A stretch of DNA of 63,048 nt, filler included, from Squatina squatina (Eukaryota): assembly GCA_031763465.1 (NCBI GenBank). It is 4 parts of 4 records of this genome, joined end to end, with 100 filler letters (N's around TTAATTAATTAA, not from the genome) between each part and the next. Parts side by side here need not be neighbours in the genome. Positions count along the whole stretch, not along the records: positions 15,630 to 31,168 come from JARFOE010000013.1; 3 more parts are not named here. One strand, given 5' to 3'. This document shows positions 6,203-31,268 of the stretch, in pieces; within the stretch, counting starts at the first letter, position 1, and the number at the start of each line of letters is the position of its first letter. Made by a program: the position numbers and the translations under genes. The notes under the pieces are model-generated. The model was given only the letters and a program-made list of their open reading frames with translations. It made no database searches and was not told where the DNA came from.

Positions 6203-6753
6203 GTAACAATTTTATTATGGCTTGCTGTCTTTGAAAGCACTAATAGTATTGGTTACAGTAGTTAGTTTACTTCTGAAGCTCATCCCAGTGGGGTTCATAT
6301 CCTCCTTTGAAGGAAGAAGATAGTTTTCTTTGGGTTCAAGATGACATGTCAACTGTAGTACATCAGGGCACGGTTGATGTCTGTCCAGCCAGTTTGGCTC
6401 ATTAGTGGGACTGAAAAAGGTAGACTTGTCGCTGTGGACTGGCATTCTTCCCACTTGGCTCCAGTTAGCTCTTAAAAAAAAATACACTGCCTTAATACGT
6501 AGGTGGTTCCTGAATAAACAAGCTGCAGACTGTGGTTTTAGCTGGTTAAATTTCCACAGTACCCCTGTGCATACTTGGGGATCATTTACCCTTGGCTTTT
6601 CCAACATGCTCCGAACATTGTTTTTAAGCATTGTATTTAGTAATTGAAGCACAATCTGCTGAAAGGATGAGGCAATACAGACTTTACTTAGATTAATGTG
6701 AAGTGTTTCCCCAGCTATCCTTTAACTTTTGAATGTATCGCATTCCTTATTAG

Positions 6754-6830
6754 GTTTTCATTCTGCACACTTTGGCAGCTTCACTCTCAGCCTGTATTTA
6801 CCAATCTCTATGTGACAGCCACAGCTACAG
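6754..6830 (+). CDS. DMXL2: DMXL2 exon
   Basis: ttag|...|gtaaat; VFILHTLAASLSACIYQSLCDSHSY. Confidence 0.9.
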
Positions 6831-7126
6831 GTAAATGTATTCATTATATTAACAGTTTTCAAACTGTGTAGTGGGGATAGAATGGTTCAGTCAGTTTTAC
6901 TGTTAGATGTCTTCACAAAGGAAAATGGTGCTTGAGATCCAATTGACTGATCCAGCTATTCTATAATAATCAAAAATGAATGTATGATACTTTAAATGAA
7001 TATCACCATGTTGGTTTCTATATAGTGATTCCGGAGTGGTTAGTTTGTCCTATTAATAAAACAACAAAATTTTGTCCTCAGTTTATAGAAGGGACTTTTT
7101 TTCAAATTATGGTTTTCTGTTAACAG

Positions 7127-7254
7127 TCAAGCAGCTACAAACCTGTTTACAGGAATGGTTTATCAGGGACTTCTGTTGGGTGAAAGACGTAGACTGCGGA
7201 CTGAAAGCATTGAAGAGCATGTAACTCCAAACTCTTCACCTTCACATTGGCCTG
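7127..7254 (+). CDS. DMXL2: DMXL2 exon
   Basis: aacag|...|gtaaga; FTGMVYQGLLLGERRRLRTESIEEHVTPNSSPSHWP, phase-consistent with both neighbours. Confidence 0.92.
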
Positions 7255-7427
7255 GTAAGATGGAAGAATGTGTTTGTAAGATTAAAATTTAATCAAATAC
7301 AAACCTTCTATTTTTTCTTCTTGATGACTGGTTATGTATGGACAAGATGGCAACTACTCACTTAAGGTACAAGAATGTTTTCTTCCTGCTTAACTAGTTA
7401 ATAATGTATCCCATTTGTTTGTTCCAG

Positions 7428-7503
7428 GTGTTTCATCACTGATTAATCTTCTTGGAACAGCTCAGGAAGATGATCAACCTAAATTGAATGTGTTGCTTTG
7501 TGA
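7428..7503 (+). CDS. DMXL2: DMXL2 exon, 3' end lost in gap
   Basis: ttccag|GTGTTTCA; VSSLINLLGTAQEDDQPKLNVLLC. Confidence 0.9.
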
Positions 7504-10500
7504 NNNNNNNNNNNNNNNNNNNNNNNNNNNNNNNNNNNNNNNNNNNNNNNNNNNNNNNNNNNNNNNNNNNNNNNNNNNNNNNNNNNNNNNNNNNNNNNNN
7601 NNNNNNNNNNNNNNNNNNNNNNNNNNNNNNNNNNNNNNNNNNNNNNNNNNNNNNNNNNNNNNNNNNNNNNNNNNNNNNNNNNNNNNNNNNNNNNNNNNNN
7701 NNNGTTCTGGGCTGGACTGAATGCGGACCCTGGACTCCATTGCCCAATTGGCTTGCCTTGAGGGTTGAATAAAATGTGACTTGTGCTGGTTTTTCATAAT
7801 TCAGAAAAGAAAGTCAAAGGGGTGGGGGTTCTATCCTAAGTTGTTAGGCTTGACACTGGCACCACAGCCAGATGCATAGTGGTCCTGTTCAACCTAGTTC
7901 TGTACTCCCTTTCTTCGTGTGCTCTCAGGATGGCGTAATCCATGGATGTTGCAACTTTCTAAATTATTTTTACACCTTTTATTAGGTTTCATTTGTTGAA
8001 TTGCTATTGATGGTGCTGGATGTTTTAAAATTGCATCTTTCATCCCATTTGGAAATAATTTTTTCCCCTCTTCTGGTTTGCAAGCTCTAAACTTTATTTT
8101 GACTGTTAGGAAAACTTAACAACTTCCTTTGCCCGTATGCTCTGTGTCTCATCTGTGATGGTGAGTTCCAGATGTTTTGCCAACAGTAAGATATCTGCAT
8201 TCAAAGTGGCAATAAAATCTTAAACTCTTCCCAGTCCCCATCCCTCAATCCTAGACAGTATTTATTGATTAGATGACCATTGACAGTGCTGAGTTCCCTT
8301 TCATAAGGGTGCAGTGGTTTAACTTTATTCAGCATAAAATGATTGAATAAAATAGTCATTTAAAAACAATAATCTTCAGTCACCAAGTAGTTGAGTTTGG
8401 TGAATATAAAGTCCATTGCAGAAGTATTTTTCCAGCATCAGCCGTGGCAGAATTAGCTGCCATTTAAATCTGAGGAGCAGGTATTTTTAAACAAAAACCT
8501 AATTTATGGTGCAGGTAAACCAAATATTTCAACTGTACCAAATTTGGATCAAAATGTTACCTTGAAGACGGAACCAGTAGCTGTGTCTGTGTCTCCCAAT
8601 TGTGAGACTGGGGCACAACACACACCAGGACTGGATGGTGAGTGGCAATGTTGGTTGCTGTGGAGTTTTGTGTGCATTTCTTAGTTTTGCACTTTTTCTG
8701 CTCTGTGTGTAACTTTCTTCTTCCTTCTCCTCTTCCTCTTCCNNNNNNNNNNNNNNNNNNNNNNNNNNNNNNNNNNNNNNNNNNNNNNNNNNNNNNNNNN
8801 NNNNNNNNNNNNNNNNNNNNNNNNNNNNNNNNNNNNNNNNNNAGCAGCCTCGTGGTTTTCAAACAAATTCAGGAAAAAAAAATGAAGCACATTCCAAGCT
8901 GAAATACCCATATAGATCAAGCAAGATATCTCCCAACAGATTCCAATAATCTGAGTACTTGTCGGTCAGTGCCCTTTAAATAGTGCTGGAACTGGCTATT
9001 TGCAACCTATGCCATCCAGGACCGCTGGACGAGTCTGGCTCTCAATGGGCCCCTTGCTAACTTAGATGACACTGACCCAATTGGCATATGTAGTAATTCC
9101 GGCTCCCTCTTGGTTTCAGCAAAAGTTCCGGCATTGGGCCGGAAGATGGCAGTAAGCTTTTTCTTTAGCGATTTTTGTCTCCCTGCCACACTATTCATTG
9201 CTGAAAAACAAGGAGCAAAATCAGCACTATTCCGTTAATGCCATGATAATATTTCAAACATGGAACATCAAAGAAATGAGGCAACCATACATTCTGAGTG
9301 ATACTGTGTGCCATTATTACATTGTGTTGCTAGGCTCTAAATAGCAGCCCGTGCAGCCATACTGAACTGGGATTTTACATTGGTAATGTTATGCATATCA
9401 TAAAAGTGTGATTGACGTGCTTGAAAAACTCAACTGTATCAGAAAACGTTTTCAAATGAATTGGCATAATTAAAATTCATTCAAGATAATTGTCAAAGTC
9501 AACTTTCATCTAGGGCAATCATTCCTTCCACATACTTGTACTGCATAGCACTACACTGTTAGCAGAAGAAATTGCGATTTTTTTTTCCACCGACCAGCAG
9601 TAACAGAGCCCCATTATTAGCAAATGCACGCAATGGGGAAAGACTGCAGGGAATGAAAGTTCAAAACATTCCTTTATTTTATTGACTGATGGCTTAAATA
9701 ACCAATCATAAGCTATTAAGCAATTTTATTTTCACAACTGGTTTCAGTTATGAATCACACATTATTACTGATAATTGAGTGAACCACACAGACTGATTTG
9801 ACCATCAGAGAGGTAATTTTGTCTGCACAAGCCATAATTTGATGAGCGAATGGCAAATGGTAGATATCCGGCTGGAACTCAAGGTCTTGTCATTTAATAT
9901 TGAGATTAAAAACAGCATAATTTGGAGTTTAGTGCAAGGCTGACATAATTGAGAGGTTCAGCAGTGTCTAATCATAATCACAAAACTATAGCGAATTAAC
10001 AAAATTATGTAACCCTGCTGTTTTATTGGGCATGCTATTTGGCTGTTGCCTGTAAACTGAAATTCACTGGGGTAATTTTAATACAACTTGCCAATGGAAA
10101 ACTGACTGGATCGGGTCAAACACAGATTTGACGGCTCGTCCGAATTTACTCTCCATTAATTTAAGGTGTAACTACTGGTGTAATGCTGATTTTGACTTGA
10201 ACTGTTGATAGAACTCCTGCAAAGTTTTTTTTAAACTGAAATAAACTTTGGGACTGCACTCTATCAGTTATTTAAAAGAATTTCATTTGCATTTGAATAG
10301 AATTTTGAGTTTGTACAAAATAGGGATTTTAATTGAGCTTCAATTGATTATCAGCTTTTGCATGAACTGATGTTCCCCTTTCACACCTAAACAAATATTT
10401 GTGTGGAATCAGTGCTAACTTTTATGCTTTTCATTTAAAAGCATATTTAAAGTTTTGGATTAATTTTAAATGTATTCCATGTTTATGGTGATTGAAACAA

Positions 10501-10718
10501 ACAGTATTAATAATTAGGACAATATAGACCTGTGTTTATATTTGAGTATAATGCTGGTCAAGTTTAGATGATGCCTCTTGAATGTCTTGGAATATTAATC
10601 TAAGAATCTTGGGAAGATAATGCTAAACTGAGCTATTTAGGTTTAGGTCAACCATTATTATATGCAATGACACTGTCAAAGATTTCTCTCAGCATTTCTA
10701 TCACATTGCTCTGAACAG

Positions 10719-10803
10719 TTCCTCCAGAAGACATTGACCGATATCGACGGAGATTTAACATGAAGATGTTGGTTCCTGGTAGACCTGTAAAAGAGACTTC
10801 AAC
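10719..10803 (+). CDS. DMXL2: DMXL2 exon, 3' end lost in gap
   Basis: aacag|; PPEDIDRYRRRFNMKMLVPGRPVKETS, resembling human EDIDKHRRRFNMRMLVPGRPVKD. Confidence 0.85.
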
Positions 10804-11256
10804 NNNNNNNNNNNNNNNNNNNNNNNNNNNNNNNNNNNNNNNNNNNNNNNNNNNNNNNNNNNNNNNNNNNNNNNNNNNNNNNNNNNNNNATTCCCCTAGA
10901 GACCAAAAATCTATCGATCTCAGCCTTGAATATATTCAACGACTCGGCATCCACAGCCTTCTGGGTTTGTGAATTCCAAAGTTTCATTTTTCTGAATGAA
11001 TATACTTGTAACCATAACGGTTATAAAATCCAGTTATTGATCAGCTTTTATGCCCCTATTGGTTAACATGGAAAATAACAAATGTCTCTGACAAATTCTG
11101 TACAAAACCAGTTGCAGAATAGTGGAGCAAAGTGCTCATTGAACACATTGTATCATTGAATTTAACCAGGAAAGCACAAATCTCATCAACTGCCATATAC
11201 TTTCGAAATTCTTCACCTGATCCCATTTTAATCCATTGTTGTATTTGTGCTTTAAG

Positions 11257-11393
11257 CCATTCCTACCTCCATCTGAGAGTGGATTTCTGTATGACTCAGA
11301 TGAAAGTATCCCTAGTGATGATGACGAGGACGATGATGATGCTTTTATTTCTGACACTCAGCTGCAAGAGCATTCAGATCCTAACTCTTACAG
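11257..11393 (+). CDS. DMXL2: DMXL2 exon (acidic stretch)
   Basis: tttaag|...|gttagt; PFLPPSESGFLYDSDESIPSDDDEDDDDAFISDTQLQEHSDPNSY. Confidence 0.9.
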
Positions 11394-12801
11394 GTTAGTT
11401 ACAAGGATCTGTGTTGCAATAACAATCACGTCATGCAATATTTAAATCTGTATATAAAAAGCCAATAGACAAAAGTCACTTGCAGAATTGTTTGTTTAAA
11501 CCTAGCTGCTTTAAGAGGCTTTTAGTATGTGTATATTTTATAAAATTGGCAGTGTATAATTCAGTTTCGAGTGGGATAAAGTGTAGGGGAAGTTCTTTCT
11601 ATTCCATTCTTTCTATTCAAAATATTTCCACTTTTTTATTTAAGTAAATGATGCTCTCTCCAGATGTCAGTTTTATCATTAACCTGGTGATTCTTGATGG
11701 GCTCCCTATTTCCTCGGCCTTTCCGCTGATAGTGATCAGGGTTTAGGCAGCGAAGGGAGAGGAAGATAGGGACATGAACAGACAATGTTCTGGAGTGAAA
11801 AGTATGGGCTTCATGACTGGATGTAGGATAACAAGATCATCCTGTTATTGAGCACAACGGTAAGTTTATGCACCACTACAATGACTTGACCAGGCAACCA
11901 GGAAGGTTGATGGAGCTGGAGCCAGAAACTTGTAAATGCTGGCCGGTACCAAAGAAGAATTTGCAAAGTTATAAACGGGGATTCCCAAGGCCAGATGGCT
12001 TCGGCTGGGCCGGTCTGACCCTCAGACTGGTCTAAAGACGCATCTGTGTCCTCCTCTTATTTGCAGTGGAGTTGTAAAGAAGTTCCTTACAATTTATTTC
12101 ATTGGAGTTACCTGGCACGGAGGATGGCTGTAGTTGGGAGTCTCCAATTTAGCCCTACTGTTGATGTTTTTTCAAAAAAATTGTGGACTAAGTAGTTGGT
12201 AATGCCAGTTGCATTTATTTTACAGATNNNNNNNNNNNNNNNNNNNNNNNNNNNNNNNNNNNNNNNNNNNNNNNNNNNNNNNNNNNNNNNNNNNNNNNNN
12301 NNNNNNNNNNNNNNNNNNNNNNNNNNNCCTTTTGCAAAGTCATTGTTGTGGATGTTCCACAACATTGTTCTTCATGTAGCTTCAGTTCAGTTCCATTCCT
12401 CTTGTTGAATGCAACTACCACAATCTCTGCAATATGAATATTTTGAACTACCACTCTTGGTTCCAATTGGTGAGCCACAAATCTAAATGTAGAATCCCAT
12501 CACCTGGATTTATGCTCCATATGTATTAAATTATTTGATGTACAACAGTTTGGTAAATGTGCCTAATTTGCATAAAAGAAAAAGGTTGAAACCTTTTGGT
12601 ATGAAGAGAGAAGGCAAAATTGAATGAATGAAGTTTATAGGAGATCAATCAATTTTCTCAATACAGTAAAGTAGCTGTTTTTGCCAATGTAATACTGCCA
12701 GGGTTTCATTTTTTAATTCAGTAAAAACATTTTATTCATTTTCGTTTTTTTTTATTTCTGTGCATGTGTAATGTGCTGTGACTGTGTGCTGTGTTGTGTA
12801 G

Positions 12802-14490: not shown

Positions 14491-14806
14491 TTATTCAGCT
14501 GGTAAGAAATGTAGACCATATTCCTTTAAATAGCCATTTTCCCATGTATACAAATGACGATCATGTGGATTATAGGATAGCATTGTAAGCGTATCATTTG
14601 ATGATCTTAAATCAAAACTTACATCAAGTTGTTTCTCTTTCAACAAATCAAGCGCAAAAACTATTTTGGAGTCCTTCGTGTCTGTGAGGTAGAGAATCCC
14701 ACGTGCAATGAATGCATTGCCAGCCTTTGATTTAGGGTATGTGGTGTTAATATTCTGAACAATCGCAAATGATTTTTCATTGATTTCAATTTGGCCAACA
14801 ATGATC
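14491..14806 (-). CDS. GLDN: Gliomedin, C-terminal part of the olfactomedin domain (3' part of last exon; 5' boundary uncertain)
   Basis: [26 protein letters not shown]...[19 protein letters not shown]...stop matches the gliomedin C-terminus. Convergent with DMXL2, as in human. Confidence 0.88.
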
Positions 14807-15300
14807 GATGGTCTAATATGGCTTCCCATGAGTCTGTTTATACATTACTTCAGTCTTCTTCAGACTAATTGTAAGCCTGTAGCTGTGAATCTCTTCATCA
14901 GCAGCTGATGGTCCTCCTTGGAATATGCCACAAGCACGCAGTCATCAGCCTACAAAAGCTCTTGTATAATTTGTTTGGAGAGCTTAGTCGGCACTGGTCG
15001 TCTTTGATAGATCCAACAGTTACGCGGTTGTGCGGATTCATATCCCAGCTCCTACATGAAGATCCCTAGTTGCATCATCCAGCATAGCTGTGTGAAAGAG
15101 TGCGGATGGAACAGGGTTCTGTTCACGTCCTTGTTTCACACCATTCAAAATAGGGAACGGTTTGCACAGAGTACCGTCCATACACCCTCTGCCACACATC
15201 CCATCACCGAGCTGTTTCAGAACCAGGAAGAGCCAACAATACATGTAGTGTTCAGGTGAACACCTTATGCTGAGCTTTCTCCAAGGCTTCACGAAAAATA
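14807..15300 (-). mobile_element. Decayed RTE-clade LINE, reverse-transcriptase fragment
   Basis: Minus-strand translations PFPILNGVKQG, ELL*ADDCVLVA (YADD motif mutated to TAG-ADD at 14941-14961) and [12 protein letters not shown]. Confidence 0.8.
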
Positions 15301-15573
15301 TTCCCTTCACTGCCGCTGATTCTGGAGGTGCTGAGGTTTACAATCAGCACTTTGGGATGTTTCTGAGAGCTGTGATAAGGCACAATATAAATAAATGCGA
15401 GACTCTCGACTCACCGCTTGACTTTCCAATGCCTTTTCATAATAACTCCGATGGTCTTCGTACGCAGTGAAGCCGCTTCCACCTCTTTTTGGAATTTTAA
15501 GTTATGGTTCCAGGTGATTGAAGTCTTTGNNNNNNNNNNNNNNNNNNNNNNNNNNNNNNNNNNNNNNNNNNNN

Positions 15574-15585
15574 TTAATTAATTAA
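15574..15585. other. Artificial scaffold-concatenation linker TTAATTAATTAA
   Basis: Palindromic six-frame stop flanked by 44 N on each side. Confidence 0.97.
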
Positions 15586-16799
15586 NNNNNNNNNNNNNNN
15601 NNNNNNNNNNNNNNNNNNNNNNNNNNNNNATACAAGAACACCAAGGTGAGAGATGTCAGTTATAGGAAACAAATTTTTTTTCTACTTTTAGTGTCCAGAA
15701 TGGACATGAAAAACTACCAGACTAAGTATTGCATACGCCACATGCGGAGTAAAGTTCCCTTTACAATGTATCATATTCTTTGGATACAACCTCGAGTACC
15801 TCTATTGCACAGGTGTGAATTTTTATGTTTCCTACACTGACCATCTTTATGACCAATCCCAGACTCAGGTCTTGACTTGTTGGATTGAGTGAAACACTTT
15901 CAATTATGTGTTGTCATTTGCAAAGCCCAGGTTGTACTCGTTCCCAAACATTTGTGGTTTTATGGCTTCCTGTGAAACTTGCTTTGCATGAATTCGTTAG
16001 ATCATGTTTTGGCCTGCACAGTGGTGCTGCAAGTTTCAGACGAAGCTGGAGTGTCTAGTTTGCACCCAGGATAAGCAAAGGTTATGCATACATATACACA
16101 CATATTATCTACCAACCCAAGAGGTCAAACACCTGATGTAGATGTAGTATGTGCATGACTCAGTGAGATGGGAAATTTAGTGCTAATTTGTAGACATTTC
16201 TATGCTGTGGACTTATGTCCAGTAGCATCCAGTTGAGGCTGCCCAAATTGTAGTTGACAGGAAAAAGAGACTTCTATCCTATCGGTTTACATTAGGAAAG
16301 TGTTTTGTTGTTAACTGTGTCTACTAGCAAACAATCATCACCTCTATGTTTGTGTCTGCTTCACCTCTCTCCCTCCCCCTCCCTGCACTACCCACTCCCT
16401 GTACTCACACATATGCAGAAACAAGGTCAGATTTCAGTAGTTCTTAGTAAAGTTATGTAGAATTCCTAGCCTTCCTAATCATTTCTTGTATCTCTTATTT
16501 AACCAGTGTACCATTCTCCCCACTGTCTCCTCTGGTCTCTCTCAGCAGATGGTTATGTTTCCATTTCTGAGAGTTTATGCTGTAGAATCCAGGAAATTAA
16601 ATTGCAAATGAAATTAGACACTTTTGAGCTCTCTCCCAGATATCAGAAAGAGGAGGTATTCACTGCCTCAATCATTTGGAAAGTGATATTGACAATTAAT
16701 TACAGTGATTAGACCAATCATTAAATCTGTTGCAATTATACAGTTTTGTTGTTTCAACTAAGTAGCATTGCACTTTAATCTCAGTGACGAACTGCTTAC

Positions 16800-17003
16800 C
16801 CCATATGAATCATTGGTCCTTCTGGCCCACAAAAGAGCCCGGAGGCTACAGCTAACACACAAGACACCAAGGTCCCAATCAGTGTTTTTATGTGAAAGAT
16901 ATATTGAACTGAAGCACCATTCAGAAATCCGATCACCTCTGGCAGGCCACTTGGCATACCTGATGGGCAGAAAAACTGGGAAGACCAAACAAATAATGTT
17001 AAT
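16800..17003 (-). CDS. CLC-family chloride channel/transporter exon (selectivity-filter and gating-glutamate motifs)
   Basis: cttacag|...GG|gtaag; PSGLPEVIGFLNG (GSGIPE-like) and LAVASGLFCGPEGPMIHMG (GKEGP-like). Confidence 0.9.
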
Positions 17004-17968
17004 CTGTAAGAATTAGACAAGAATCCTTCAACGCAGCACAACTGTGATATTAGCCATGTTCTTCATTCTGATTATTAAATATTTTGGGAGGCAGCATAGG
17101 TGTCANNNNNNNNNNNNNNNNNNNNNNNNNNNNNNNNNNNNNNNNNNNNNNNNNNNNNNNNNNNNNNNNNNNNNNNNNNNNNNNNNNNNNNNNNNNNNNN
17201 NNNNNATTTAACAATAAAAATTATTCCATACATGTCTGCATGTTGGTAGTTTAATTGTGATGCTACAGTACATGATGGTAAACCAGCCAATAAATTCATA
17301 TCAACTCCATAAGCCCCCTGCTAAGCCCTCACCTACCCCACACACACACAGCCTCAAAAGTAGCTGAATGTAAACCTTTGTACTGGTGCCTAACAATATC
17401 TCATAAATCTGTTGTGCGAACTCCCTCCAGCAGTTTCTTTGCTTACTGAGACTGATTGGTTACAAACAACAATCACCACACCCCCACATTATTCCTTTGC
17501 TAAATATTTATACTTAAAGTCATTATATTCTGAATAAAATTAAGCATCTTTGGAAAGAAAATTCACCCCCCACTCCCCAATCATTTTCCCTTTCCTTTTC
17601 TTAAGGCACTGACTTCTGTTGGGATACAGCCTCATGTACACTGGTCACCCTCCAGAATCTTGCCAGGTGCCCATTCTCCATTTGTGAGACTAGGCAGTAA
17701 ATGTTGGTAGGACATCCCATCTGAGCCCAATCCTGTCCTCGGTCAATGTCCATACAAGACACACATATACTGTCCTATAGACTCACAGCATTCGGTGCAA
17801 GAACACAAGCTGATTTATGTGCTCCTAGTCCTAAACCTTGAGGTCAAAGACAGCAACCTAAAATGAGCTCTTGAATAGATTCTTTCTTAATATATTTACA
17901 TTAACAAATAAATCTGCCAGTGTTGAAATGAAAATATTTAAATAGTGGACAAGAATTGTGCTCATTAC

Positions 17969-18207
17969 CTGTAAGGCATTTCTCGCAGCCATTTTTTATA
18001 AATGTCGCTGTGAGAAGGTAGATAATCCAGACTCTCATGCGATGCCAGACTCTCTCGATCTTTCTGAGTGTATTTAACTCTAACTAAATTATCCCCACCA
18101 TTTCTTCTTTGAACATTCTGTTTACCTATCTCAGGTCTGCCTTCTTGTAACAAGGGACGTTCCTCAGAGTCCCTCCATTTCTTGGTAGACTTGAACAGAG
18201 AAGTCAT
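17969..18207 (-). CDS. First coding exon of the CLC-6/7-like gene
   Basis: ATG at 18207, acceptor upstream at 18268, donor |gtaatg. Contains EERPLL (acidic dileucine) and ESLDY, the conserved N-terminal motif of CLC-6/7. Confidence 0.8.
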
Positions 18208-21200
18208 TTAGCAGTAGCTTTCAGAGCCTCAGCAATCAGCAGCTTCAAAAGTTCAAAAAGGAAAGATCCTGGACGAAAATGGAAAGAGTACTGAGTGCTC
18301 ACCACCACAAAGGTTCTGAAGGAGAAAAACAGCAGATGATTTAGGCACTAGATCATGTGCTTTGGTTTATTCTCGCGAGGAATAGAGCTGGCTGGTGAGG
18401 GCTTCCATTAACCTGTTTTATCCAGGTTTGTTTATTGTCAGGAGATGATGAGTCAACAGAGGTACAGCCTTCCTAGTAACTTAGGAACATAGAAATTGTT
18501 GATAAAAAAGACCACGATCTACAATCTCTAGCAATTAGCCTACAGCAGACCCAGATATGGCACGAGGAAAACTGGTGTCCTAAGTGTGTTTTATGAAGCG
18601 GTAGGATTACCTGGCTATTTTGACTCAATATTGGTCTTTCAATACATCCCAACGTCTGCTTTGTTTTTCTCACTGCCACTCAGCATTGTTGCATTAGCTT
18701 CAATTTATTGCCAATCAGGATCCCCAGATCTCTTTCATTTTCCATGCACATTATTTTCTTTCTATTTAATAGTTTCCCTCATTAACATATTGTTAGGTAG
18801 CTGCCAAGAACACGTGAAATAGCCCGCCCCAATATTGGGTCAAACACCTTTCAGGTGTCTTTGGGGTGCATGACGTTAGTCCCCGAAATTTTCCCTTTCC
18901 ATCCGCAACAAGGTCCAATTTCCACACAATGGGCAGATTGCTGTGAGAGAACTCGGGAAAACAGTTTTAATGGCGGAAATTGGGTGGAAATGACTTCTAC
19001 CTGATTTTCCTGCTTAAAAAATATTCTCGCACCATTTATACACTGTTAATATACTGCAAACATTGAGGAAATATACTCTCTTTATATTCATTAAAGTAAG
19101 TGCTGGGGAATGGAAATACTTTTTTATTTCAAGCACCCAGAGGACAGCACAGCTTCCCTACAATATACACCTTGGTTATAACGTCAGAAGACCATCTCTT
19201 CAGCACCAGTATGGAAATGTCACAATCCAGTTGAAGCAAATTTCAATACCCAGTCACTAACACCACAGGCCAGGGNNNNNNNNNNNNNNNNNNNNNNNNN
19301 NNNNNNNNNNNNNNNNNNNNNNNNNNNNNNNNNNNNNNNNNNNNNNNNNNNNNNNNNNNNNNNNNNNNNNNNNNNGCCTGCTCCGCCATTCAATGAGATC
19401 ATGGCTGATCTTCCAACTTCAGTACCCTGTTCCTGCTTTCTCCCCGTATCCCCTGATCCCTTTAGCCTTAAGAACTATATCTAACTCCCTCTTGAATATA
19501 TTTAATGACCACCTGTTTTGGCTATTGAATGAATTTACGGATGATTCTGATTAATAAGGTAACTCGGTGCAGTCAGATCATTTACGTGACTTCATAAATA
19601 CAAATATTAAAACAATCCTCAAAACACTGACATTACAATTAATCTGCACCACAATGCAGCATAATAATGAGCAAAAACTTCCAACGATTCTGATTGAATG
19701 AGTTTAGTTTGCAAGTAATTTTCACTTTTAATTTTGACTGTATAAATGCATCTTTCAACTGTCCGAAAAATATCTATTAACCAGTACTCTATTTTATGCC
19801 CTTTAAGCACACTTTCTATCCATCTTGCCACATTCCTTATATCATGTCCTTAATTTTAATCACAAAGCCTCTTATGCAGCACCACATCATACGCCTTTTG
19901 AAAAACACTTGGTGCGACAAAAACAAACATTTTTGCATGTGTTAAATCTTTTCATTTGTATTTCATATTGTTAGAATCAGCAAGCAAGGGGTTAAACCAG
20001 TATCATACAAGGTACTTCTCAAAAGAGAACATTAATTTATTTCCAGATGAGCTGACTATGGCATTCTTCCGAGTGCAAATTGAGGAGGCTGATAACAAAA
20101 AATTCAAGGTGTTAATTGCACAAAGCCGTCACATTCAATGACAAGTATTTTTGCCACTGTCAAATAATGCCTTAATTCAATATTGATTAATGGCTATTTG
20201 CTTTAATTTATTCATAATTGTATTGTCTACTGTTTTGGTGTCTAAAAGAATGGAAGACCCAGGACACAGATCAAATGATGGGCTCCAGTATGGGCCAGTG
20301 ACTTTGATTGACATCTGTTTCTGAGACCTTCTGAGAAGTGGGCGGGTCACAGATTGCATGCAAGATCCACTTGTTATTGGCTGCTTACTGATTGATAACT
20401 CACTCCCAGTATAATTATGAAAGCAGAGGACCCTGACCGCTGAGCTATCAATCCCTTGAGAACTGATTGGAGGCTTCATTGATTGACATCTCAGCACAGC
20501 AGGTAAGTGTCTTTCACTGAGTGCTTTGTCCCATTGCAACCACATGTAGCTGTTTCGTCTGCAGAACTTGGCTGGGAATTTCCTCGGAGCAGCTCCCATT
20601 CCGCGCCATAACTTTACTGNNNNNNNNNNNNNNNNNNNNNNNNNNNNNNNNNNNNNNNNNNNNNNNNNNNNNNNNNNNNNNNNNNNNNNNNNNNNNNNNN
20701 NNNNNNNNNNNNNNNNNNNAGGCTCGAAGGGCTGAATGGCCTACTCCTGCTCCTATTTTCTATGTTTCTAGGTCTATGTTTTTTTTTTACATCAACTACT
20801 GCCTTTATTAACCAATAATCTTGTGTAACATACATATCTGCTCTGATCAGGCAATAAATGTCTTGGTTTGACACCCTCATCACCCCTCCCCCATTCAAGT
20901 AAAAGCCAAGATTCCAAATGGCTTTTATATCACCATTGCCTTGATGAGAAAATAAGTTACTCTGCACCACTATTGAATTTATTTGTGGCTGGGAACATTA
21001 TTGTGGGCATACATTAAGATTTACAGAGATCCAGGTCTGTTTTTTTTTTGTGGGTGTTTAGTATTGTGGAAAATTGACAAGACATGAATAGGAAGTGAGG
21101 TTTGAGAGAAGGTTTTAGATCTGTCAAAATTAATTGCTGTAAGTTTGTCCTTCAGGGGGCTGTGAAATCTTCACATTCTCTTTGCATGTCATCATACGCC

Positions 21201-22548
21201 GTAGGTCTTGAAGTACAGCCTTAATACTATAGGAACTTTGCCACTTTGATAGAATTGGTATGCTACGTGAATCCACCTGCAAGAATAAAAAAGTGTAAAA
21301 TGTAGATGTACAGTTTTAGTTGTGTGAAATATTATCACGTAGCCGGTACCATGTATAAATTTACGACAAATTATCAGTGTATACTTTCGCATAATCAGTG
21401 CAGTGAGACAGGAGGTATCCCTGAAACCCATGCACGCAAGCAAGCAAGCAAGATGAAGACGGATTTCGGCCCATCTGTAAGACTACCTACGTTCGTTCGA
21501 ACGCTTCGCGTTCTCACTCAATCCGTCTGAATAACTTCGCTAAAAATGTTGCTAAGAATATCGTTTTATAGACGATTTCAGTATCAAAATCACGATAATA
21601 CCTTGCAAAGTTTATTTTGCAATCACTTTTTATTTCCCTTATCTAGCCTGATGCATTTGTACTTCTTGGTCCAATTTTCCTACTAGTCTGGTCCACTGGT
21701 TCCCTATTTTTGGCCTATCCCACTTTGGCATCAGCAGCAAATGTGTTCCCACTCTTTCCCCCAAATCATTAATATCTGTTCAATGTAACAATGGCCCAAA
21801 TCACAACATATTTCCCAAAGTCATCTCTTTCCATGCTGATGCTGCTCCCTTAAGACATTTGCATTCTCTGATTCAACAGGTTATTTATTCACTTAAAAAG
21901 CTTCCCTCCTATTTTATTTATTTACAGGATGTAGGCATCNNNNNNNNNNNNNNNNNNNNNNNNNNNNNNNNNNNNNNNNNNNNNNNNNNNNNNNNNNNNN
22001 NNNNNNNNNNNNNNNNNNNNNNNNNNNNNNNNNNNNNNNATTCCATGGCACTATTTTGAAGAGCAGGGAAGTTCTCCCAGATGCCCTGGTCAATATTTAT
22101 CCTTCAACCAACACCGCCCGGTCATTATCACATTGCTGTTTGTGGGACCTTCATGTGCACAAATTTGGCTATTGCGTTTTCTACATTACAACAGTGACCA
22201 TACTTCAAGAGTACCTCATTGGCTGTAAATTGTTTTGGGACATCCAGCGGTTGTTAAAAGCGCTACATAAATGCAAGTACTTTATAGCCAAACCTTAACA
22301 CCTTACAATCAGCAGAGAGAAATATTTCTGCCCATCAGTCTGGATTGGATTAAATTCTAGGTCTGAAAAAGGTAAATAGACAGCACTGCATGCCCTGTCC
22401 AATTACCTTTGCAAAACTAGTACTACTACATATATATTTACAGTAAACCGTGGAATCCAGTTATTACACATTCTTGTATGACTAAAACCTCCAAATGTTT
22501 ATACAAGGTTCTTGGCAACATTCAACTTCCCAAAATTCCCTTTTCCTA

Positions 22549-22682
<134 letters not shown>

Positions 22683-23356
22683 NNNNNNNNNNNNNNNNNN
22701 NNNNNNNNNNNNNNNNNNNNNNNNNNNNNNNNNNNNNNNNNNNNNNNNNNNNNNNNNNNNNNNNNNNNNNNNNNNNNNNNNNNNNNNNNNNNNNNNNNNN
22801 NNNNNNNNNNNNNNNNNNNNNNNNNNNNNNNNNNNNNNNNNNNNNNNNNNNNNNNNNNNNNNNNNNNNNNNNNNNNNNNNNNNNNNNNNNNNNNNNNNNN
22901 NNNNNNNNNNNNNNNNNNNNNNNNNNNNNNNNNNNNNNNNNNNNNNNNNNNNNNNNNNNNNNNNNNNNNNNNNNNNNNNNNNNNNNNNNNNNNNNNNNNN
23001 NNNNNNNNNNNNNNNNNNNNNNNNNNNNNNNNNNNNNNNNNNNNNNNNNNNNNNNNNNNNNNNNNNNNNNNNNNNNNNNNNNNNNNNNNNNNNNNNNNNN
23101 NNNNNNNNNNNNNNNNNNNNNNNNNNNNNNNNNNNNNNNNNNNNNNNNNNNNNNNNNNNNNNNNNNNNNNNNNNNNNNNNNNNNNNNNNNNNNNNNNNNN
23201 NNNNNNNNNNNNNNNNNNNNNNNNNNNNNNNNNNNNNNNNNNNNNNNNNNNNNNNNNNNNNNNNNNNNNNNNNNNNNNNNNNNNNNNNNNNNNNNNNNNN
23301 NNNNNNNNNNNNNNNNNNNNNNNNNNNNNNNNNNNNNNNNNNNNNNNNNNNNNNNN

Positions 23357-23474
<118 letters not shown>

Positions 23475-23807
23475 CTAAAATATACGGATTTATGGGCATT
23501 AAAAACAATTTCAGCTTCCCCTCAAAAATTCACCTGTGGCATAGCTTGGTGCAAAATCAATCAAAAGAAAGGAACTGTGTACAATGGTTTCCAAACTTTT
23601 CTGGAGGTTGACAGTGGCAGTGACCAAAAGAAAAAAAATCATTGAAATTTTTAGTATCTAAAGCAACAGAAATAAGACGAGCAATACAGAACAATATAGA
23701 AATCTTTTGACCTCAAAGACCTCAGGTTTAGCATGCTGTTTATGTATTTACTTCTATTTCTGAATACTAATTTTCAACATAACTGTAAAAACACTGGAGC
23801 AGATTTA

Positions 23808-24275
<468 letters not shown>

Positions 24276-24479
24276 TCATGATAATTTAAGTGACCTTATA
24301 TGTTATCTTGTTTCAAGAGTAAAGGGAGCATCCATAGTTATAAAATATAATCAGGTGGTGGAACAATTCTGGAGCCTGTTGGCACACTGGTGCATTGTGC
24401 CACAGAACGATCGGAAAATACATGACATGATTCTCAACACGGTAATGTCCTAATCTAGTGCCATTACACTGCATTACTA

Positions 24480-24826
24480 GGTGTATTCTATATGCCACTG
24501 AGTAGGAAGGATGTAGAGGAGCAAATTTGCAGTGAAATTGCAGAAAGGTACAATAACTATAGGGTAGTAATAATGGGGGACTTCAACTTGTCCCAGTATA
24601 AACTGGGACAGTAATAGTGTAGAGGGTAGTGAGGGGGAAGAATTTCTGAGGTGTGTCAGGAGAACTTTCTTGAAGAATACGCTTCTGCCCCAACGAGGAA
24701 GGAGGGATTGCTGGATTTGGTTCTGAGGAATGAGGTGGGTCAAGAGGAGCAAGTGTCAGTAGAGGATCATTTAGGGATCAGTGATCATAGTATCATAAGG
24801 TTTAGATTAGCTATAGAAAAGGACAG
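24480..24826 (+). mobile_element. Decayed CR1 LINE ORF2 endonuclease fragment in an MCM4 intron
   Basis: IMGDFN and PTRKEGLLDLVL...DHLGISDHSIIRF apurinic-endonuclease motifs, with stop codons. Confidence 0.85.
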
Positions 24827-25201
24827 NNNNNNNNNNNNNNNNNNNNNNNNNNNNNNNNNNNNNNNNNNNNNNNNNNNNNNNNNNNNNNNNNNNNNNNNNN
24901 NNNNNNNNNNNNNNNNNNNNNNNNNNAGAGAGGAGAGAAAATGGAAATGTAGCATGGAAACTCTTCTGAGCTTATTAAAAAAGGAAAGAAATATATATAT
25001 TGGTTAGAACACAGAAACCAACTTTTTTTCTGAAGTGATCACACGCACGTTAATAATGCGCTTTTGGGGAGCATACCCAAGAAGTAAATGTATGAAGATT
25101 CTACCGTGATTTGCTCACGAGCACATACAACGTTTAATAAATAAAGGCATATATGTCATATACAGGAAATTGTAAAGAAGTGTTCCAAGAACATCTTGTA
25201 C

Positions 25202-25461
25202 CTTTTTGATATCTTCATGCTCATAAATACTAGGAGCCAGAGCAGCAGAAAGTCGTTCATAGATATCAGGCTTCTTCGAGAGGTCTTTCAGCATGTCAGC
25301 ACGCTCCTCTGTGAACAGTTTCTGTTCCTTTTCATCATCAAGACTGTGAAGTCGTTTCTCATCAGTTTTGCGAAAGTGAATGACATCAATGTGAGTCTTG
25401 TACACGGATTTCACGTTGTTTACTCTTGGATTTACTCGGATAGGAACAGCTCTGTAGATGC
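25202..25461 (-). CDS. MCM4: MCM4 exon
   Basis: [31 protein letters not shown]...[13 protein letters not shown]; AG/GT. Confidence 0.96.
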
Positions 25462-25628
25462 CTAGACAAAACAATTTTACACATAAACAATCCTCCATCT
25501 CACCTAAAAATCAAACATCAACCGTCTGTGAGTTTGAGAACGTAAGTTTTTTTTTAAATCATAAAATTAATTTACCTTGTTCCTCCTTAAAACAAAAGGT
25601 CTCATTACATTAGGTTCCATTACATTTA

Positions 25629-25790
<162 letters not shown>

Positions 25791-26536
25791 TTAAACTTGT
25801 TANNNNNNNNNNNNNNNNNNNNNNNNNNNNNNNNNNNNNNNNNNNNNNNNNNNNNNNNNNNNNNNNNNNNNNNNNNNNNNNNNNNNNNNNNNNNNNNNNN
25901 NNATAATAGCTAGCTGCGATTTTGACCGTTGTGAGATCGGTAATGTAATAACAAAAAGACTTGCATTAGTATATCACCTCATCACATCTCTTCCAACAGT
26001 CCCAAAGCACTTCACAAAGCACTCAGAAGTGCAGTCGCTGGAAGACAAACGTGACAGCACTTTTGTATAAACAGCAATGACCAGTTAGTTTCTGTTTGGT
26101 GATAGTGGTTGATGGAGTAGTGTTGGTAGTGTTGGTCATGAAACTGGGGGACCTCCCTGCTCTTGAACTAGTGCCATGGGACAAGTGTCGTTCAAGGCAG
26201 CAGTATTATAGATTATAGTCCTAATTTTGTTTAAATGCTGTAGTTGCAAAATGCTGTTTGTAAAAGCATTGGTTGAATCTCCATAGTGCAGTTCTGCTGC
26301 CTTGGACTGCAATAACACTTAGATTCCAGGAAACATTTTTGCTCCATAAGTTGTTTCAATGTAACAAGAAAATATCGAGACAGGCTATTTTATTAAAACT
26401 GTATCAAGTATTCGATAATTGATTGTTAAAGCACTGCTTTGAGGTTAGGGGGAAATTATTTTGTTGCAATCCAGTTATTTAGAATTAACTTTACAAATGT
26501 ATCGAGAGATGCTTGTATTTCTGAAGAAAAACTTAC

Positions 26537-26757
26537 CATCTGTTTGTCTGAAAATATTGAACGGTTGTGGATTAGAGCCATGCTGTGTGTGGTGTTGCAG
26601 TTCTTGCACACAGATGGCTCAGCGATCCGGCCACGGTCAACCTCCACCCGTGTGCAGAAAGCACACACTTGGCAGCTAAAAAATGCCTCTTGCATTTCTG
26701 GAATCAGTTGAGAAGACCTGATCACCATGCCACTGACTGTGATCAACTGATCAATAT
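26537..26757 (-). CDS. MCM4: MCM4 exon (zinc finger)
   Basis: [31 protein letters not shown]...CKNC...[11 protein letters not shown]; AG/GT. Confidence 0.96.
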
Positions 26758-26960
26758 CTGTAAGGAAAAATGCAAAACAATAATTATTCACCTTAAACTA
26801 CTTTTAAAACAGAAAAGATATTCTGAACTAACAAACAGCACTATTACAGGTTGCTTCTGAAAATCTAAATCACTCAACAGTTGGCACAAATGTGCAATAC
26901 ATCATAAAACGTATTTACCAACTAAAACCAGCTTCCTTTAGTCTCGCCCCAATTCCCTAC

Positions 26961-27099
26961 CTTCTGGATTCAGACTTCTCATATTTTTGGTTCTCAAAGC
27001 ATTGTACGGCCGAACTTGGATCTGATGCTCCAGTATAGAGTCAGGGAAACGCTCAAAAAAAAGTTCATTGACAGCCATGTCAAAAGTAGGAATCACTTC
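26961..27099 (-). CDS. MCM4: MCM4 exon
   Basis: [46 protein letters not shown]; AG/GT. Confidence 0.96.
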
Positions 27100-27209
27100 C
27101 TATACATTAAAAAGGAGTTGGTTTAGAATCAAAACACTAACATGTTTTGGATTTCAATTTTCTTTCAAAATTTGTGACAATGAAGCAATTATTTATTGTA
27201 TTACACTAC

Positions 27210-27305
27210 CTGTGGGTAACAAATCAACTGTCTGTATAATTCAGGGTCAAATGTTCTCAAATGAGAAGCGTTCACATTTAGAAACGGCTCTCCCACCAAA
27301 TTCAT
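27210..27305 (-). CDS. MCM4: MCM4 exon
   Basis: [32 protein letters not shown]; AG/GT. Confidence 0.94.
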
Positions 27306-27403
27306 CTATAATAAAAGCACATGGTTAAAATTCCATAACGCTGGAATGCTTGCACAAGGGAGACAATTAACAAAAATACAGATGGGGTCAAGATATGCAT
27401 TAC

Positions 27404-27499
27404 CTCCTCAAGTCGTTGCATGTAAAATGGTTCATTGAGGTCCAGGCCTGTAATTTCCTCTTCTTTTGCAGACGGGTCAATAAAGCGCTGAAGGAATCT
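27404..27499 (-). CDS. MCM4: MCM4 exon
   Basis: [32 protein letters not shown]; AG/GT. Confidence 0.94.
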
Positions 27500-28004
27500 C
27501 TGAAATGAAATATTACAAGGATTACTTTCTCTTCTAGAATGTTACAGAAACCACACCTCTCAACACTTGCCTAACATTGCTAGCTCACTCTAGCCTAATT
27601 TACAATGGAAAAAAAACACACCCCAAGTTTCAGCATTAGATACCAAAACGCAGATCCATACATATTGTCAACTGCTTTATTTGATCACAACGGGCAGCTG
27701 TGGCAGATTTTTCATTTGATCTGTATAGTTGTGTGATCCAGAAAAATAACTAGAGTTCTTAGTGTGATCTACTAACTCCAAAAGATGTGTTCACTTGTAT
27801 GTGCACGGAAGGTTTGTCTAACAGGAGTTGATGTATCATGATGATGCTATTTTGTAGCAAATGGAGGATAACTAAGAATTGCTTTGTAATATGTACAAGG
27901 GAAGAACTGAACAGATATTTAAAGAGCAAATCCAAACTGCATTTTAACTTACAAAGTTTGATCCACATACGTTTACAAAAATAAACCAGTTATCTGAAAT
28001 CTAC

Positions 28005-28106
28005 CTGAAACTTTTCTTTGCACGCGGCCACATTGACATCTGTTCCCCAGATTACCAGCTTCTGTCCAAGGGATTGCTCACTGGTCACAACTTCATCTGC
28101 TGAAGG
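28005..28106 (-). CDS. MCM4: MCM4 exon
   Basis: [34 protein letters not shown]; AG/GT. Confidence 0.95.
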
Positions 28107-28235
28107 CTGAAAGCAAGAGATTGGACTCTTAAATGTAAGTAGCCAATAACAAACTTACTTCTTTAAAAAATATATAAATATACATGAATTCGCATAAAAT
28201 TTGGTTAAGCTACATAGCTTCTATCAGGTACCTAC

Positions 28236-28396
28236 CTGGTCTGCATGCAAGTCAACTTGGCGGGCCTTGCGTGCGGAACCAAGGTCAGGACGCTGGCGTA
28301 TAGGTGTACCACGCACACCGCTACGAGGTGTACCTTCCACTCTGGAGCTGGGAGTGCCATAGGTCAAGGGAGAGCTTATGTCAAATTCACTGGCAG
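28236..28396 (-). CDS. MCM4: MCM4 exon
   Basis: [39 protein letters not shown]; AG/GT. Confidence 0.95.
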
Positions 28397-28807
28397 CTGT
28401 GGAACATTAATATATTGTGACAGTTACTTCAACAAAAGAAAGTGACTAAATATACACACTCACACAAAATATATAAAACAGTCTGGCAAAGGTGCAGCTG
28501 GCTCAAAGGTGGAAAAGAATTCTGAAACATTAGAGATAAGCACCAAGAAACTGGAGCTAATGCAATAAAAATAGATTAGTGCTACTCCTCTCAATACAGC
28601 ACTGGTCACTTAATAGAAAAGCACTTTAACACAAGATTGTTTCAGTGCAAAGAAAAATAGCTGGTTGCTTTTCCTGATGTCCTTCACATGGTCCTCTACT
28701 CAGTACAGGCATTTAAGGGGAGAGTAAAATATCTGCTGTTGCTGCTGCAGATGCGGTCTACACTGCTTGCAAAGGTTCAAATTCACTCTGAATGACAAAC
28801 AGCAAAC

Positions 28808-28975
28808 CTGAATGACGTGACCGTGCTGGGCTGGATAAGAAAGATGACTCCTGCACATGTGGGCTCCGAACATCTGCTGCTGGAGAAGTTGGCATCGGCT
28901 GCAGCTCCCCAGTAGATGTTGAATCATCGATCCGCTGCCTTTGTGAAGGTGGAGACTGTACTCCATCACTACGAG
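28808..28975 (-). CDS. MCM4: MCM4 exon (S/T-P-rich N-terminal tail)
   Basis: [34 protein letters not shown]...; AG/GT. Confidence 0.92.
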
Positions 28976-29648
28976 CTGCAAGAGGTTGATTTATTGTTAA
29001 CATGTCTTCACAGTTAAGTGTTTTTTTTAAATGCAAGTGACAACACAATTCTGGCCCCACATGGAGATGAGCTGCAACAACTAGGCGAGCTGTTCAAAGT
29101 TAAAACCAGCAGTAACGTAACTTGACACGTGTCTGAACTGCCCCCTTTAGGATCTGTAAACGGTTTATACAGCTGTAATGTAAATACAAGATGAACAGTT
29201 TATCAAGTTGAATCTCTTAAAATGCTAGGGCAGCCAATCACTGAAAACAAATAACTTTTTCCCTCTTGTCCAACTGGTAGCTTGATGTTGGATTTGCTGC
29301 ACTATCGCTAAAGTGAATACCTGCAGGGAATAGAACCAAGTAGTGTGTGTAACATTTTGAAGGGGAAGGGCACAGCAGGCCTGGGAGTGTAGAGAACTGG
29401 CTGGATATTTAGTGGATATCACTTCAGTTCTTTAGATGACGTTTAAAATTAACAATATCTCAATGGTCGCATGTATTTATCTAATTAAAACATTCAACAA
29501 ACTATTTTTGTACAGAAACAATGACCAAAAATGTGAATATTTCAATAGAATATTTTGTGCCCAATGAACTAGAATGGCTTTAAAGCAAAATTCTGAAGGC
29601 TTCAATAACTTGATGTTAATGGATGCTGCGGTCAACAATAAGACTTAC

Positions 29649-29718
29649 GTGTGGCAGGGTTACTGCCCCTTCCACGCTTGCTTCCTTTACGATTAGGTGT
29701 AGATGTTGGCGACGACAT
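29649..29718 (-). CDS. MCM4: MCM4 first coding exon
   Basis: ATG at 29718; MSSPTSTPNRKGSKRGRGSNPAT|gtaagt, with a cctag acceptor 8 nt upstream of the ATG. Confidence 0.92.
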
Positions 29719-30600
29719 CTTCAGTACTAGGATGGGAAAAAAAATACATTGATATTGAACTGTGCACTTGTAGAATTGTGCCCAAAATGAGGATTTTATG
29801 ACAAAGAACTGGATTCAAAATGGAGTTCTGGGACAGTAAAAGGGCAACAAAATGGAAACTGCATGTACCACTCGCAAGACAGGCTCAGACCAGCAGGTGA
29901 GAAAATTCCTGCGGTCTCCTGTCAATCAAGACAGATTCTAATGCAAATGAGNNNNNNNNNNNNNNNNNNNNNNNNNNNNNNNNNNNNNNNNNNNNNNNNN
30001 NNNNNNNNNNNNNNNNNNNNNNNNNNNNNNNNNNNNNNNNNNNNNNNNNNNGAAACTCCTTACTTCCTTCAATCTTTCCTTCCTTTGTCAATTTTAAGAC
30101 TTTTTTTAATAACCTAGGCTTGGCATCAGATTTGGTGGTGTTCTGTACTATAAACGTTGGTCCTTAACCTAAATTTCTCAATTACAAAAACAAGTGCGTG
30201 AAAGTGGTCTGCGGTAATTTGCTCTGTGGCTTTCCTTGCCATCTGCAGTAATTGCCTACCATCTGTTCTTTCTTGTGCTGATAGGAAATTGCCTCTTTGT
30301 TGGTTATCTTATAGAAAAACAAATGTTGACAATGATATGTTTACTCACTTTTTTCAATATATTGCTAATGTCCCATAGTTTTGCCTGAAGTAAGTTGGAA
30401 GATACATTGTTTTATAAGGACAGGGGTGATATGTAGTTCACAGTCAATTTGCTGCTAAGGTGGAAGGAATTGTGGCAGTGTTCTGGTAAACAAGTGTTTT
30501 AAGAAAGCAGCTCCCTGGGGAAAATGTTCTTGGTTCCTCTTTTGTAGTAAAATTGTTAAGCCATTCTTTATACATGTGGTAACAATTTCAAATTCCTCAG

Positions 30601-30700
30601 ATGACCTCTGCAACAAGAGAGCCGAAACTTCTAGTGGTATCGGGATGCCTTAGAGGGTTAATAGCACTTATGATAAACTTCACTAAATCTGTAGAGGAAG
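30601..30700 (+). CDS. PRKDC: DNA-PKcs N-terminal exon
   Basis: ctcag|[33 protein letters not shown]|gtgagt, resembling human [20 protein letters not shown]...NFTKSMEE. Divergent from MCM4, as in human. Confidence 0.9.
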
Positions 30701-30795
30701 GTGAGTTTCTTGTTTAAATTATATTGAGATATAAATGCTTAATGCACTCCAGCCATGTCGGAAAAAAAATAACAATTGGCAAATATACTTTTTAG

Positions 30796-30851
30796 ATCCA
30801 AGGACATCAAGGGATATTTTTGACTATGCACTGAAATCCATAAATCTGCAG
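30796..30851 (+). CDS. PRKDC: DNA-PKcs next exon
   Basis: tttag|(D)PRTSRDIFDYALKSINLQ|gttagt, phase-consistent with the previous exon. Confidence 0.88.
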
Positions 30852-31011
30852 GTTAGTTCTAAATTGCTGGATGTTGTGTGTAACAGAAAAAAAATGTTTG
30901 GAAACTGGAAGGATAACTGATTAAACTGGTTAAATGTTGTCTTTTAGGAATTGAGAAATTTTGGAGCAGAAATAAGAATATCGATTCAGCCATAATTTGA
31001 AGATTAGGAAG

Positions 31012-31168
31012 TACATAGAAACATAGAAAATAGGAGCAGGAGTCGGCCATTCGGCCCTTCAAGCCTGCTCCGCCATTCAGTATGGTCATGGCTGATTCTC
31101 TACCTCCACTCCATGTTCTCGCATTCTCCCCATATCCCTTGATACCTTTAGTATCTAGCAATCTCTCT
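31012..31168 (-). mobile_element. Shark-type CR1 LINE/SINE 3' tail. Related copies near 2240-2395, 5197-5270, 13824-13900, 19376-19500, 20720-20770, 33520-33745, 35060-35160, 36539-36696, 42240-42350, 46550-46690, 47537-47593 and 48030-48175
   Basis: Recurrent motif ggctcgaagggccgaatggcctactcctgc...ttttctatgtttctatg and variants, often at contig ends. Confidence 0.85.
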
Positions 31169-31212
31169 NNNNNNNNNNNNNNNNNNNNNNNNNNNNNNNN
31201 NNNNNNNNNNNN

Positions 31213-31224
31213 TTAATTAATTAA
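31213..31224. other. Artificial scaffold-concatenation linker TTAATTAATTAA
   Basis: Flanked by 44 N on each side. Confidence 0.97.
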
Positions 31225-31268
31225 NNNNNNNNNNNNNNNNNNNNNNNNNNNNNNNNNNNNNNNNNNNN

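Follow-up and report, generated by a model that had tools for sequence, protein, structure and literature searches.

Two exons of a divergent CLC gene in Squatina squatina: sequence evidence for an ancient CLC subfamily separate from CLC-6 and CLC-7

The 63,048-nucleotide stretch of the Squatina squatina assembly GCA_031763465.1 analyzed here (the window) contains two exons of a divergent CLC gene, both on the minus strand. It is made of four unrelated scaffolds joined end to end by artificial, unstranded spacers (N44-TTAATTAATTAA-N44, at 15530-15629, 31169-31268, and 47437-47536), and genes on opposite sides of a join are not neighbors. The CLC exons share a single scaffold, at positions 15630-31168, with exons of an MCM gene and of PRKDC.

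Exon A (17969..18272) is the first coding exon and encodes residues 1-80, with a 5' untranslated region at 18272-18208 and coding sequence at 18207-17969. A splice acceptor lies at 18272, the ATG at 18207 sits right behind an in-frame TAA, and the donor AG/GTAATG follows past 17969. The encoded segment is 86% identical to residues 1-80 of P0003, an 827-residue orthologue from Mustelus. Exon C (16800..16975) spans the inner-gate loop and continues as far as the gating glutamate; it corresponds to residues 151-209 of P0003. Its borders are CAG/TTT at 16975 and the donor GG/GTAAGC past 16800, and it matches Pfam Voltage_CLC (PF00654) with E=2.2e-09, over the curated cut-off. It is 96% identical to P0003, 74% to the chicken and 71% to the Xenopus protein, and 40-41% to CLC-7 and CLC-6. 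A homology search with exon C gave 129 matches among 157 candidates; the nine best are 91-97% identical, and eight of these are named as sharks or rays. Both exons have open frames and AG/GT splice borders.

The signature motifs lie in exon C. PSGLPE (16954-16937, minus strand) forms part of GMPSGLPE (16937..16960), which, aligned to E. coli ClcA, has Gly at A104 and Pro at G106 and keeps the central Ser. A Thr codon (ACC, 16871..16873) occupies the position of ClcA K131. GPEGP (16814..16828) has Pro at R147 and keeps the gating Glu, encoded by GAA at 16822-16820. Exon A carries ESLDY (18022..18036), common to CLC-6 and CLC-7, and EERPLL (18148..18165), an acidic dileucine motif predicted to act as an endolysosomal sorting signal (motif class: PMC8946281). 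The original prediction had described two CLC exons with PSGLPE and GPEGP; both motifs are on the minus strand at the predicted place, and the splice borders and the Pfam match agree.

Only the parts equivalent to residues 1-80 and 151-209 of P0003, 138 of ~827 residues, fall within the window. The two exons are not consecutive, ~70 residues (81-150 of P0003) being expected between them, and these had no match elsewhere on the scaffold. Contigs of X5 extend more than 1 kb beyond both sides of the N gap at 17106..17205, and there is no space for an exon within 17219-17969. Residues 81-150 therefore most likely lie in this gap, in one or more exons, and the remainder past the scaffold end; the rest of the gene is out of view because of the gap or because the scaffold ends at the separator at 15530..15629. 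Contigs of a relative, X19 (probably an RNA run, by the guess of the tool), end at 17967, 16974, 16800, and 18272 and continue into sequence that manual reading assigns to the neighboring exons of homologues. Exon C is also covered by contigs of two other organisms, X2 and X14. Of the differences in these contigs, 10 of 15 and 11 of 18 are listed; those listed leave both prolines and the threonine as encoded residues unchanged, and 10 of the 13 within the exon are synonymous by hand count.

Orthologous RefSeq entries, such as XP_078073194.1 (Mustelus), XP_015138137.3 (chicken), and XP_002934155.3 (Xenopus tropicalis), are called 'chloride channel protein C-like', 'B-like', 'D-like', or 'chloride transport protein 6-like'. 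These automatic names, which we take to come from Dictyostelium ClcB/C/D, differ from species to species. Shark and ray orthologues are 769-827 residues long; identity between shark and bichir or chicken orthologues is 55-62%, and identity to CLC-7 and CLC-6 is 30% and 33%. Full-length searches with shark and bichir queries (best 120 of 315 and best 120 of 194 matches, each from ~8000 scored candidates) listed vertebrates from sharks, rays, and bichirs through caecilians, salamanders, and frogs to turtles, crocodilians, lizards, snakes, and non-passerine birds. Also listed were other deuterostomes (amphioxus, tunicates, hemichordates, and echinoderms) and further invertebrates (molluscs, brachiopods, nemerteans, spiders, a copepod, corals, and a sponge). 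Mammals, teleosts, and passerines were missing from the matches listed, though both full-length lists reach invertebrate scores, and this pattern of absence suggests losses in those three groups. A profile search, from which 20 entries were looked up, added more distant relatives, including a choanoflagellate, a haptophyte or green alga cluster, and a ctenophore.

Phylogenetic relationships were examined with a quick tree of 64 rows and a careful tree of 30 rows, comprising no rows for the exons of the window, CLC-1/2/K, CLC-3/4/5, or labeled Dictyostelium proteins. The vertebrate proteins form a single clade (100/100) within an animal clade (100/100), with CLC-6, CLC-7, and a plant CLC outside it. 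Approximately unbiased (AU) tests, in which one teleost CLC-6 row and one teleost CLC-7 row among the 30 served as references, reject a union with CLC-6 (p=1.1e-4) and with CLC-7 (p=2.1e-6). The 30-row tree is unrooted, and the E. coli ClcA root of the other tree is a long branch that we do not trust. The clade takes in amphioxus, sea urchin, coral, sponge, and a choanoflagellate. Its vertebrate stem branch is long, at 0.42 changes per column, and 43 columns are fixed in invertebrates and different in vertebrates.

On this sequence evidence, the gene belongs to a CLC subfamily that is ancient and distinct, and it is neither CLCN6 nor CLCN7. A separate, little-studied paralogue in non-mammalian vertebrates had been proposed, and the single clade and the AU tests bear this out; the grouping inside CLCN6 or CLCN7 that had been set against it is the arrangement the tests reject. 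The accompanying idea of a vertebrate offshoot of the CLC-6/7 type gives way to a clade reaching sponge and choanoflagellate. The subfamily is already annotated and apparently unstudied; a literature search with limited coverage of subscription journals found no description of the clade.

Structural comparison agrees with a CLC identity. The model of P0003 has a predicted local distance difference test score (pLDDT) of 84.7, and its best fold matches are CLC-7, AtCLC-a, and CLC-6, at 26-29% identity and template modeling (TM) scores of 0.72-0.77; CLC-1/2/K and CLC-3/4/5 rank lower, at 18-24% identity. In Pfam, P0003 has a Voltage_CLC domain (E=2e-69) and two CBS stretches (E=6.3e-11), the latter seen in this orthologue and lying outside the window. 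A search of the ESM Atlas returned CLC clusters only.

Pore residues were mapped by alignment to E. coli ClcA, whose numbering is used here; unless stated otherwise, counts refer to 120 vertebrate matches (the best 120 of the 129 found with exon C) and 35 invertebrate homologues. The equivalents of E148, F190, E202, and E203 are kept. The gating Glu is Glu in 117/120 vertebrate homologues and Asp in 3/120. At the proton glutamate (E203), all 116 homologues covering the position have Glu and 4 have gaps; a further 23 orthologues comprise 21 with Glu, one with Lys, and one with Asp. Phe190 is conserved in 110/120. The Phe357 equivalent is Val in 109/110 vertebrate proteins and Val or Leu in 35/35 invertebrate ones, and the aromatic slide formed by Phe190 and Phe357 is incomplete because only Phe190 is kept.

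Two further positions are altered across the animal clade. The R147 equivalent is Pro in 35/35 invertebrate and 113/120 vertebrate homologues, and position 113, Lys in CLC-6/7 and E113 in ClcA, is Ile in 117/120. Of the 129 distant representatives free of gaps, 29 have Lys or Arg at 147, and every one of these also has Phe357 and Lys or Arg at 113; those with Pro147 are mixed. By these alignments, GPEGP and the absence of the central Phe both date back to the ancestor of the clade. Three other changes are confined to vertebrates (38 vertebrate vs 34 invertebrate rows): A104 to Gly, G106 to Pro, and K131 to Thr. Their codons all lie within exon C, and the three substitutions fall jointly on the vertebrate stem. 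The K131 equivalent is Thr or Ser, never Lys, in 120/120 vertebrate homologues, compared with Lys in 35/35 invertebrate homologues and in 134/139 non-gapped distant representatives. Pro precedes the central Ser in 106/120 vertebrate homologues. The usual GSGxPE and G(K/R)EGP signatures thus read PSGLPE and GPEGP, altered and still alignable; neither the fold nor the glycine-proline backbone motifs are disrupted. Within the clade, Arg257 is confined to vertebrates.

Assembly error does not account for the prolines, since most vertebrate homologues share them and the listed differences in the X2 and X14 contigs leave both encoded prolines in place. Of the two motifs that the original prediction had singled out, only the Pro before the central Ser proves specific to vertebrates; GPEGP is older and occurs in plant CLC-f too (PMC8839641). 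Likewise, retention of the central Ser is correct for this shark and does not extend to the whole clade, being seen in 95/120 homologues. All 10 turtle entries have Tyr in its place, 15 birds and a crocodilian have Phe, Leu, Cys, Pro, or Ala, and frogs carry Phe instead of the central Tyr (14 of the 66 homologues covering the position). Stronger changes than those foreseen are the loss of K131 inside exon C and, in orthologues, of Phe357.

Some lineages depart further. Sea turtles (P0103, P0105, P0106, and P0117) are represented only by short entries of 146-279 residues; in three of the four, Leu stands at both proline positions and Asp replaces the gating Glu. Gene decay there is possible, judging by these entries. 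In the galliforms P0288, P0306, and P0310 and the frogs P0119, P0289, P0290, P0303, and P0307, the Pro preceding the gating Glu is replaced by Leu or Gln, and never by Lys or Arg.

At the N terminus, EERPLL matches the pattern [DE]xxxL[LI]. Among 70 N-terminally complete vertebrate orthologues, drawn from 143 examined, 68 carry a sorting motif compared with 12.6 expected from shuffles: 50 have a dileucine motif only, 16 (frogs) a tyrosine motif only, 2 both, and 2 neither. Both motif types act in sorting, and CLC-7 has an N-terminal dileucine (PMC8946281).

Published work bears on several of the altered positions. K131 is called universally conserved and is described as steadying Cl at the central site and bonding with A104 and G106; ClcA K131A/M mutants bind more weakly, with a dissociation constant (Kd) >20 mM, exchange at a stoichiometry of ~3:1, and are slowed ~20-fold, from 2300 to 110-130 Cl/s (PMC12248016). 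ClcA F357A/L mutants transport ~9-fold more slowly, at ~4.3:1, and Phe357 is only ~76% conserved among CLCs (PMC7274781). Selectivity is shaped by amides of the outer site, among them that of K165, which coordinates anions there in simulations, though it could not itself be tested experimentally (PMC9726985). Neutralizing K210 of CLC-5 shifts the NO3/Cl preference and leaves H+ transport in place (PMC3243520).

Our preferred reading, held tentatively and at slightly less than an even chance of being right, is that the vertebrate protein may be a slow, weakly Cl-binding, loosely coupled anion/H+ exchanger of endosomes or lysosomes. Protons would still pass via the two glutamates. Pro at R147 would leave the outer site with one positive charge and one backbone NH fewer, and it is plausible, from the sequence, that the Pro changes alter selectivity or coupling. 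Thr at K131, combined with Gly and Pro at A104 and G106, would weaken central-site binding and loosen the inner gate, and Val at F357 would leave the aromatic slide with only one of its two halves. If the ClcA mutants are a guide, turnover might be at least 10 times lower, with more than 2 anions moved per proton. Targeting to endolysosomes would be the role of the N-terminal dileucine or tyrosine motif. A nitrate switch like that of AtCLC-a was considered and rejected, since the Pro here does not take the place of the Ser.

Several points weigh against this proposal. Its basis is sequence, a structural model, and mutant analogy, and both transport and localization are predicted. The mutants drawn on for comparison each carry one change, in CLCs other than this one, and co-evolved changes such as Arg257 may compensate for such effects. 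The variability of the central Ser (25/120) and Tyr (14/66) fits zero chloride binding equally well. Residues past 209, including the equivalents of Glu203, F357, and Y445, were read in orthologues and lie outside the window. As for sorting, the tyrosine option (YxxPhi, with Met allowed in the last position) was added after the frog sequences had been seen, bichir P0305 is without a dileucine, and none of 34 invertebrate homologues has one.

Comparison with characterized CLCs shows likeness and difference in each case. The endolysosomal 2Cl/H+ exchangers CLC-7 and CLC-6 share with this protein ESLDY, both glutamates, and the CBS pair and are among its best structural matches; CLC-7 also shares the N-terminal dileucine (PMC8946281). 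Unlike it, they belong outside the clade and retain the equivalents of A104, G106, K131, K/R147, and F357. The plant nitrate/H+ exchanger AtCLC-a is an equally close structural match, but its nitrate switch is a Pro at the central Ser itself, and here the Pro comes one residue earlier. CLC-f has the same GPEGP (PMC8839641) but is prokaryote-like, with SSKSSQ, and its GPEGP is therefore probably independent. The vertebrate protein is naturally non-Lys and non-aromatic at the positions changed in ClcA K131A/M and F357A/L; those mutants, however, were made one change at a time in the laboratory, in a bacterial protein only distantly related, whereas here the changes are combined and fixed by evolution.

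The alternative that survives best, though unlikely, is that chloride is no longer the main substrate of the vertebrate protein, which would instead carry another anion or a weak acid, coupled to H+, or act as a regulated conduit for protons. Three basic or charged positions near the pathway are now neutral (K131 to Thr, R147 to Pro, the CLC-6/7 Lys at 113 to Ile), the central Ser and Tyr differ by lineage around two constant glutamates, and the long vertebrate stem with its 43 switched columns points the same way. Against this, the central Ser is still the majority state, Tyr is retained outside frogs, the fold and backbone motifs are intact, and ClcA K131 mutants go on exchanging Cl for H+. 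In its fullest form, also improbable, chicken, Xenopus, turtles, and sharks would possess a tenth vertebrate CLC whose chloride site (K131, R147, F357, and the inner-gate loop) was dismantled and whose proton pathway was kept, moving a different solute or protons only across endolysosomal membranes, and lost separately in mammals, teleosts, and songbirds.

Somewhat less likely still is an ordinary 2Cl/H+ exchanger in which the substitutions compensate for one another. The Glu148, Phe190, Glu202, and Glu203 equivalents are nearly invariant, GPEGP with Val has been in place since before animals, and the tolerance of CLC-5 to K210 loss (PMC3243520) and the incomplete conservation of Phe357 (PMC7274781) are compatible with it. 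However, Lys at 131 is close to universal among the distant representatives, a K131 or F357 change alone degrades ClcA coupling, and the bulky residues that turtles have in place of the central Ser do not fit easily with a normal site.

We also doubt, a little more strongly, that the protein is a transport-poor regulatory or scaffolding CLC, a sensor or partner subunit, with relaxed constraint on its pore and hence lost in several lineages. Such a role would accommodate a central Ser that changed repeatedly and independently among birds, crocodilians, and turtles, the sea turtle fragments with Asp for the gating Glu (3/120), and the apparent absence from mammals, teleosts, and passerines among the matches listed. 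Retention of both glutamates clade-wide speaks against it, as do the mostly synonymous listed differences from X2 and X14 and the 55-62% identity of shark to bichir and chicken proteins. That the gene is a fragment or pseudogene in this species is very improbable: few of its residues are in the window, but what is missing falls where the N gap and the scaffold end are, the frames of both exons are open, their splice sites are normal, and sharks and rays have full-length orthologues.

The subfamily adds a further CLC branch beyond the nine mammalian CLCs (PMC5362633), one that is present, under misleading automatic names, in two standard model animals. In vertebrates it has lost K131, described as universally conserved in a 2025 paper on mechanism (PMC12248016), and the two loop residues to which that lysine is said to bond have changed with it. 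The clade also offers a natural series for CLC coupling: invertebrates have R147P and F357V, sharks and birds add K131T and G106P, turtles add Tyr at the central Ser, and frogs add Phe at the central Tyr. The N-terminal motif provides the customary handle for obtaining surface expression.

Upstream of the CLC gene, on the same scaffold and strand, lie exons of an MCM gene (22540..29740, minus strand; Pfam MCM and MCM_OB), with more exons at 23474 and 22680. PRKDC (DNA-PKcs) exons stand head to head with it at 30583..30917 on the plus strand (Pfam DNA-PKcs_N, E=7.1e-13 and 0.006). From sequence features and the head-to-head PRKDC exons, we take the MCM gene to be MCM4. The predicted proximity to MCM4 is thus upheld as regards MCM exons on this scaffold and strand, the gene name itself being our assumption. 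Between the last MCM exon found and the CLC exons there are four N gaps, and therefore the order is supported and the distance is not. Short UBE2V2 motifs and two MCM4 tail motifs had no matches in the window, which, given the gaps, is no evidence on synteny. The chicken and Xenopus orthologues are located on sequences of 149.9 and 154.5 Mb, presumably the MCM4-bearing chromosomes.

The other scaffolds hold unrelated features. An olfactomedin-domain last exon (Pfam OLF, 14494-14844, minus strand) was considered as nested in the CLC gene and rejected, because it is on another scaffold. It converges on exons at 621-11442 (plus strand) that we take to be DMXL-like, a pair presumably resembling GLDN-DMXL2. 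A long low-complexity tandem repeat, open in more than one reading frame (several in all), occupies a scaffold start at 31269-32258. GC-rich open frames of 252 and 150 residues at 45284-47252 (plus strand) have no Pfam match and look like exons of one gene, which we assume to be ZSWIM5/6-like. A 295-residue frame with a sulfotransferase motif and weak Pfam matches (54139-55023, minus strand), presumably a carbohydrate sulfotransferase, is followed by Arg/Ser-rich exons at 57065-59220.

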